Assembly: GCA_964016885.1 (NCBI GenBank)
Contig: OZ024740.1
Span: forward strand, 179,304,001-179,368,000
Length of the DNA stretch: 64,000 bases
Source of the DNA: Eledone cirrhosa
Lineage: Eukaryota
Direction: 5' to 3'
Part shown: positions 53,830 through 55,284 of the stretch, in pieces
Position numbering within the stretch: position 1 is the first letter of the stretch
Layout of the letters: each line of letters begins with the position of its first letter
Made by a program: the position numbers and the translations under genes
Notes under the pieces: generated by a model
Seen by the model: only the letters and a program-made list of their open reading frames with translations
The model's database searches: none
Told to the model about the DNA's origin: nothing

Positions 53830-54036
53830 GATCGACTTTCGTCAAATCGGACCGAGGAAACAATGTTTTCGTTGGTCTTTCCAGTTGCTAATACTATCTA
53901 TCGGTCGCAACTCCAGGTAGAAGGAGCAACGTGAAATAAAGTGTCTTGTTGCTCAAGGACATAACGCATCGCCCGGTCCAGGAATCGAACTCACAATCTC
54001 AAGATTGTGAATCCAATTCTCTAACCACTCAGCCAC
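53830..54036 (-). mobile_element. tRNA-derived SINE (V-like family relative)
   Basis: GTGGCTGAGTGGTTAG (A-box)...GAGTTCGATTCC (B-box)...GTCCTTGAGCAACAAGACAC; head duplicated in inverse at 54217-54284. Confidence 0.8.
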
Positions 54037-55284
54037 ATATATATATATATATATATATATATATATATATATATATATATATATATATATATATATATAT
54101 ATATATATATATATATATATATATATATATATATATATATATATATATATATATATATATGTGTATGTATATATATATATATACATACACACATATATAT
54201 ATATATATATATATATGTGACTGAGTGGTTAGAGAATTGGATTCACAATCTTGAGATTGTGTGTTCGATTCCTGGACCGGGCGACGGTTCTTATATATTT
54301 GATATATATTTATCCTTATTGAGCCCTCTTTGGCTTTTAGTCTTCAAATTTATTATTACTATATATATATATATATATATATATATATATATATATATAT
54401 ATATATATATATATATATATATATATATATATATATAGTAATAATAAATTTGAATAAGGATAAATATATATCAAATATATAAGAACCGTAGAGCAAATAT
54501 TTATTAAAATAACAAAAAGCGAAGGTTAGTTTCAAAAGATCCCGTTAAGGGTGAAAGCAGCGATTCTTTGCTTAAACTTTAATCTGTTATTTTAATAAAT
54601 ATATATATATATATATATATATATATAATGTAGGAGGTGAGTTTTATAAAGCAATTTTAACTGATGAAAACACAAATGTTATTGCATGATGATATTTGTA
54701 TTTGAAATGCGCATAATAAAATACATGGAATTCATTTAACCATCTTTTGATCTTATATATTATATATATATATATATATATATATATGAGTTAATGTGTG
54801 TATATGTGAGTCTTCATTTAATACGTTCTGGTTTCACCTCATTGATAGGCCTTGGCATATAACATTAATATAAGTGTAAATGTGTGAGTTTTTATAGCAA
54901 TGTAGCTAACTGATTTCATTTTCTTTCACTTGGTTTCACTTTCTTTCACCCTCACTGTCTATAACTTAAATTATGTCTCACACACACTAGTGTATACAAC
55001 TATACTCATTATGCCGAGCCGCATAACAGAATAGGGATGTGCATATGTATATATGTATATATATATGTATATATATATATATATGTATATATATATATAT
55101 ATATATATATATATATATATATATATATATATATATATATATATATATATATATATATATATATGTATATATATATATATATATATATATATATATATAT
55201 ACATATGTATATATATATATATATATATATATATATATATATATATATATATATATATATATATATATATATATATATATATAT

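Follow-up and report, generated by a model that had tools for sequence, protein, structure and literature searches.

Within the window, by which we mean the whole 64,000-nucleotide stretch of Eledone cirrhosa DNA analysed here, a resident tRNA-type SINE and a resident Penelope-like element (PLE) of a family that we call C flank two TA tracts, between which the 5' head of the SINE and the 3' tail of the PLE family stand again in inverted orientation, joined to one another. In our estimate (roughly 70%), this arose as a two-sided inverted duplication, in which a TA tract between the resident SINE and the resident PLE would have suffered a double-strand break, followed by fold-back of both ends. 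This reading is carried by the anatomy of the locus, the local origin of the mirrored SINE head, a rare end common to both C tails, a junction with 1 nt of shared sequence, and the recurrence of the pattern elsewhere in the genome. We take the locus for a genuine, local scar of repair, of a kind that recurs across the genome and varies on a known process, though as a single locus it has no evident function.

Anatomy of the locus

On the left, the resident SINE (53826..54036, minus strand, with its 3' end placed at about 53826) is whole but for a TA tract in place of its first few 5' bases, and its body fits the 30 top-match rows. We read in it an A-box-like TGGCTGAGTGG and a B-box-like GTTCGATTC, judged against what we take to be the consensus of these boxes. 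Next to the SINE head, a left microsatellite arm (54037..54167) of about (TA)61 followed by TGTGTATG leads into (TA)8 (54168..54183), the putative left fold-back centre, on either side of which an interruption of the tract is mirrored. The copied arm (54184..54216) then reads CATACACACA followed by (TA)11, and its TA length has likely been altered since by slippage. After this comes the inverted copy of the SINE head (54217..54284, plus strand), 68 bp long with two substitutions, one of which is inside the A-box-like motif. A previous reading, made from the sequence alone, had noted that the head at 53969-54036 reappears inverted at 54217-54284 with two mismatches, and that it runs straight into a family C tail. 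Both points are borne out, in that 53969-54036 and the reverse complement of 54217-54284 are identical at 66 of 68 positions, the homology stops at 54284, and a single base (A at 54284) is shared between the two copies at their junction.

On the right, a 75-bp family C tail with a 3-bp-short end (54285..54359, plus strand), which we read as an inverted copy of the right-hand resident, is followed by (TA)39 (54360..54437), the putative right fold-back centre. Beyond it lies the 3' tail of the resident family C element, a Hydra-clade PLE by its motifs (54438..54514, minus strand), with the same short end and a 24-bp internal deletion, and then this element's own inverted 5' piece (54515..54598, plus strand), which reaches the second terminus of the family before giving way to a TA tract, as is typical of PLEs. 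The earlier reading had overlooked this second mirror, in which 54284-54359 faces its counterpart at 54438-54489 on the far side of (TA)39, within a resident element that spans 54438-54598. Taken as a whole, the layout is L-(TA)-rc(L)|rc(R)-(TA)-R, joined at a microhomology of 1 nt, and as such makes an RNA template unnecessary. Moreover, the junction between SINE and PLE has one match in the 3.0-Gb genome searched and is therefore unique, which rules out an amplified SINE-PLE chimera.

The mirrored SINE head is a local copy

We compared the mirrored head with 35 family heads that had not been selected on this sequence, after removing heads more than 16 differences away and the second heads of pair loci. 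None of the 35 is within two differences of the mirrored head and one is within two of the resident head, with a median pairwise distance of 10, and so the two heads are more alike than random family members. The subfamily motif common to both heads is found in none of the 35. Moreover, the family's first bases are absent from both heads, and TA abuts each directly, a truncation seen in 0/30 top-match rows and in one of the 35 unselected heads, itself a member of a mirror pair. The tract interruption TGTGTATG-(TA)8-CATACACACA (54160-54193) is mirrored as well, and this fixes the fold centre. A comparison of shared private mutations, proposed with the sequence-only reading, gave nothing, because the resident equals its subfamily sequence: it has no private SNPs, and at least 40 places in the genome are 100% identical to it (40 of the 907 candidates scored, one being this locus). 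What stands in their stead are the shared 5' truncation, the subfamily motif, and the mirrored interruption, which show that the mirrored head is a local copy. The earlier proposal that a broken (TA)n end self-primed as a hairpin and copied its flank is supported.

The family C piece

The sequence-only reading had further proposed that the copying switched template onto a newly inserting element. Against this, the 75-bp piece faces a complete resident C, and both C tails have the same 3-bp-short end, which occurs in 318 places among about 15,030 family C tails (2.1%; the total is twice the forward-strand count of 7515, since the reverse count repeats starts). Because it faces this resident and shares its rare end, the C piece is more simply explained as a second fold-back of neighbouring DNA. 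All told, the earlier reading was right about the fold-back and probably wrong about the PLE step.

Several observations weigh against the double fold-back. The short end is the sole private marker that links the two C tails, and it can arise more than once, through a slip of 3 bp within a TTA run. The 24-bp deletion has to be later than the copy, and it takes the copy's one private SNP out of testing. L003, a C tail truncated at its 5' side to almost this length, has no mirror, and so short new insertions do happen. The microhomology is just 1 nt, and a tandem duplication plus an inversion can give the same product. Finally, four sequencing runs, probably from other individuals or species, contained neither an empty allele nor a piece spanning the junction.

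Recurrence in the genome

Pattern searches of the genome returned 27 head-to-head SINE pairs and 105 tail-to-tail C pairs, the latter compared with about 28 expected under independent insertion, and 77 pairs were inspected (all 27 SINE pairs and 50 of the 105 C pairs). By hand, 14 of the 27 SINE pairs were judged mirror-type, about 10 consist of two full-length copies, and three are ambiguous. The mirror-type pairs end in a TA tract (8), other DNA (4), a repeat tail (1), or a second mirror (1). Among the C pairs, 17/50 share a variant or a junction, as against 2.9% of 2450 cross-locus control pairs, and 33/50 have no marker for either reading. At least one arm ends in TA in 27/50, and second mirror ends are found in 3/50, clear in L276 and L289 and doubtful in L188, which was not counted as a double mirror given its non-microsatellite spacer of about 600 bp. 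The 77 pairs thus hold three other clear double mirrors (L276, L289, and L182), with microhomologies of 4 nt in L276, 4 nt in L182, and about 4 nt past a mismatch in L289. In L280, L291, and L270, the copy passes through the inversion junction that belongs to the resident and on into the host flank, which an RNA template could not have supplied. Since we found no double mirror in a random 1 Mb, the class is rare.

Elsewhere in the window, the 41.5-43 kb region was considered as a second double mirror and rejected, as its inner arms are each nearer to distant family copies than to each other. There, a repeat that ends in TA is present twice within 41570-42950, and by eye it has a hammerhead-like core near 42285-42330. 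In the right-hand copy the last bases are missing, and the sequence continues into a mirror of the right flank, 190 bp long, and then into a series of 39-bp copies with TA between them, which suggests iterative re-priming. A 376-bp palindrome (28043-28418, 97%) also adjoins a TA tract. In random stretches of the genome (L061-L160), we counted 122 hairpin-type palindromes per Mb (arms of at least 25 bp, gap of at most 30), many of them next to TA tracts and many resembling PLE head-to-head inversions. At five loci (L162, L167, L170, L175, and L184), two full-length SINEs face each other by their heads with a few bases and no TA tract between them; these are possibly twin insertions at one cut or fold-backs at a short palindrome. 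The SINE 5' end, or a motif resembling it, forms tandem arrays at G000:C26:10193399-10196933 (69-bp unit) and C3:286966282-286968256 (about 45-bp unit).

Mirrors at random TA tracts

To gauge frequency, 663 TA tracts in 100 evenly spaced 10-kb stretches were searched for mirrors by masked self-BLAST. Four of the 663 have mirrors of unique or low-copy DNA with no adjoining repeat end, and one further tract has a repeat-end mirror that is cut by the region edge. The rate is 1/267 for tracts with a recurrent repeat end and 4/396 for those without (p=0.65, small numbers), where a recurrent end is one with matches in at least two other stretches, a definition that misses rarer families. Past the far TA tract, the DNA is a recurrent end in 5/16 informative cases as against a baseline of 324/1128. 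Rough per-side mirror rates are alike for unique flank (0.3%), SINE heads (about 0.4%), and C tails (at most 0.7%), albeit with differing detection thresholds. Moreover, the 5' junctions of 58 other family C insertions include no case in which the host flank is mirrored (upper 95% bound 6%). With no excess at repeat-adjacent tracts and none among the 58 insertions, the mirror is not a PLE-specific substitute for a target-site duplication. Of the earlier claim of an inverted flank duplication in place of a direct target-site duplication, the inverse copying of the flank is supported and the PLE-specific role is not. Of the two outcomes named in advance as refuting it, heads no more alike than random members are not what is seen, while mirrors equally common at other TA tracts are roughly what this small sample gives, with no enrichment at repeat-adjacent tracts.

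A first anchored mirror count (8/663 against 22/6000 control pairings) was replaced, since low-complexity sequence made up about half of what it found and the C mirror escaped it, and its unmasked random-point control (45/2000) was left unused. Separately, one family C insertion (L005) has, by eye, a low-complexity mirror one tract away.

Alternative origins

Among the alternatives, we consider it distinctly unlikely that the right end received a fresh C insertion by reverse transcription, truncated at its 5' side, and was then joined to a left end that had folded back, as is known for L1 from the accessible parts of PMC10191854 and bioRxiv 2024.12.14.628481. Short truncated C tails such as L003 are present, in L161 and L193 the mirror passes straight into a TA-terminated repeat tail, and a mirrored flank is joined to a repeat end at 42 kb. 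However, deletion into a resident element accounts for L161 and L193 just as well, the anatomy recurs in none of the 58 other C insertions (with the same bound of 6%), and this origin also requires an unrelated, opposite-facing C neighbour (about 0.4-0.7%) that happens to have the 2% short end.

Tandem duplication of the head-TA-tail unit, followed by inversion between two self-complementary TA tracts, would give an identical sequence and junction, and its geometry would fit exactly. It needs two rare events, and we hold it to be quite improbable. For C tails, direct repeats across TA (118 matches, some in arrays) are about as frequent as the 105 inverted pairs. For SINE heads, in contrast, the 118 direct matches are, among the 100 listed, mostly from a few arrays, with one visibly separated by TA, while 14/27 inverted pairs are mirror-type, and the un-inverted precursor is thus rarer than its product. 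The precursor thus looks rare among SINE heads but not among C tails.

An assembly or library fold-back artefact seems very improbable. TA-centred palindromes are hard to sequence, and no read or contig spans the junction in the four runs, yet none of the runs listed contained half of the sampled words, so that they probably stem from other individuals or species, and the arms differ in substitutions, TA length, and the 24-bp deletion. Least credible is that SINE and PLE inserted independently in one TA tract and were truncated afterwards, which has in its favour that full-length head-to-head SINE pairs do occur (about 10/27) and that the head lacks private SNPs, but which the shared 5' truncation and subfamily motif (0/35) and above all the mirrored tract interruption already largely refute.

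Proposed mechanism and known systems

For the two-sided fold-back that we favour as the most economical single account, a double-strand cut would have fallen within the self-complementary TA tract, after which each 3' TA end would have paired with itself and a polymerase would have extended it along its own flank, for 68 nt on one side and 75 nt on the other. The new ends would then have been released and joined to each other by end joining, and slippage, two to three substitutions, and the 24-bp deletion in the resident C would be later changes. As the cutter, a TA-targeting PLE endonuclease acting without insertion and host cruciform nucleases appear to us evenly matched. As for the polymerase, we favour a host repair enzyme over the reverse transcriptase of the PLE. 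That TA-targeting PLEs both cut TA tracts without inserting and extend the folded-back DNA ends with their telomerase-related reverse transcriptase is an unlikely proposition, though if true it would imply thousands of insert-free transposition scars, in the form of one- or two-sided palindromes, and a DNA-templated self-priming step in the PLE mechanism.

Fold-back inverted duplication is already known from yeast breaks, Drosophila synthesis-dependent microhomology-mediated end joining (SD-MMEJ), and human L1 sites, each compared here as the accessible portions of the sources describe it. At somatic L1 insertions, 0.3% have a fold-back duplication of the 5' flank, 52-220 bp long (PMC10191854), modelled with the reciprocal end annealing to itself (bioRxiv 2024.12.14.628481). 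As here, an end self-anneals, primes synthesis, and duplicates its flank in reverse, and one L1 case was primed by TA/AT homology. Our locus differs in having a long TA tract as primer and in that the opposite side, which is new cDNA at L1 sites, is best read as a second DNA fold-back. Yeast breaks yield local fold-back insertions through hairpin priming, displacement, and joining at 0-5 bp of microhomology (PMC11724301), a range that covers the 1 nt found here and the about 4 nt of L276, L182, and L289; those insertions are mostly 5-34 bp and in the described cases affect one side of the break, whereas here there are two. In keeping with fold-back (snap-back) templating, the inserts of our locus are the reverse complement of the adjoining flank, start at a self-complementary primer, and are local copies by several markers for the SINE arm and by one rare shared marker for the C arm. 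In Drosophila snap-back SD-MMEJ, an inverted primer repeat within one strand templates the insertion (PMC5728401), a likeness that extends to the direct (loop-out) products also seen at TA tracts here; that model ends by annealing at newly made microhomology, for which 1 nt is weak.

Breaks at TA repeats with MMEJ repair, the tracts being hotspots via cruciform cleavage, are reported for somatic cancer ecDNA in the accessible text of PMC13645644, in which mirrored flanks are not described. As regards PLEs, the inverted 5'-truncated copies in the parts of PMC8557442 and PMC3846280 available to us account for the resident's own head-to-head structure and for TA targeting, though they invert element sequence and here it is host flank that is inverted. 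In the same partial sense, PMC3846280 infers PLE self-priming from element palindromes, and PMC11167929 describes a PLE that cuts both strands of AT-rich DNA and extends them. A non-exhaustive search of the literature, over parts of the main texts, turned up neither two-sided mirrors centred on TA tracts nor mirrored flanks at PLE sites, and the accessible portion of PMC13282606 likewise holds nothing on them.

If our reading is right, the germline repeatedly breaks at TA tracts in this genome and palindromes mark the repair, and 4/663 would extrapolate to roughly 3,000-30,000 unique-flank mirrors genome-wide (95% interval). Such scars would raise apparent transposable element copy numbers and could pass for target-site structures or new SINE-PLE chimeras, and would at the same time form a countable natural record of fold-back repair.

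Family C and other Penelope-like elements

Hydra-clade PLEs are characterized by the motifs CxCX5C, RW(K/R), DKT, and CxxC/CxH, with TA targeting also reported (PMC8557442, as far as its accessible text goes). In family C, the CxCX5C linker is represented by CNCRNRVDC (L244, L246, and L251), the RWK-like RWR and DKT appear in L249, and most copies have CDLC...E...N...CKH, in which CxxC and CxH surround the conserved E and N. Insertion into (TA)n is evident, as TA follows 7515 tail matches on the forward strand (about 15,000 in total), and C tails occupy about 0.38% of TA-tract sides. By these motifs and this targeting, we provisionally place family C in the Hydra clade. A GIY-YIG-like region (IVYKCKV...AYIG, with R, H, E, and N downstream) can be made out by eye after a thumb-like region, and on account of this C-terminal position we rejected an assignment to Naiad. 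The end of the family C open reading frame and the tail occur together in L240, L249, and L254, and the inverted 5' piece and TA end of the resident are usual for the family (44/59 rows, by a noisy automatic label). Pfam searches with two family C fragments gave neither a GIY-YIG nor a reverse transcriptase match, and Rfam gave no hammerhead in 47000-57500, where the resident copy is short, its other matches being sub-threshold ones of miRNA type on AT-rich hairpins.

In loci L002-L030 and L202-L231, the ends of family C fall preferentially at two termini, which lie about 85-90 bp from one another, with the inner one found in most inverted pieces, and this spacing exceeds the PLE tail of 30-40 bp given in the parts of the literature accessible to us. 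At 52439-53485 (minus strand), a 348-aa open frame resembles the family C protein by eye (reverse transcriptase thumb and Cys linker), with no match in Pfam. A second PLE family is present at 55285-56366 and 49688-50901, with a GIY-YIG domain (Pfam E 9e-05), inverted terminal pieces, and a hammerhead-like core by eye near 55500-55535. Lastly, another SINE head is fused to a family C tail at G000:C7:36531477-36531608, through a different junction.
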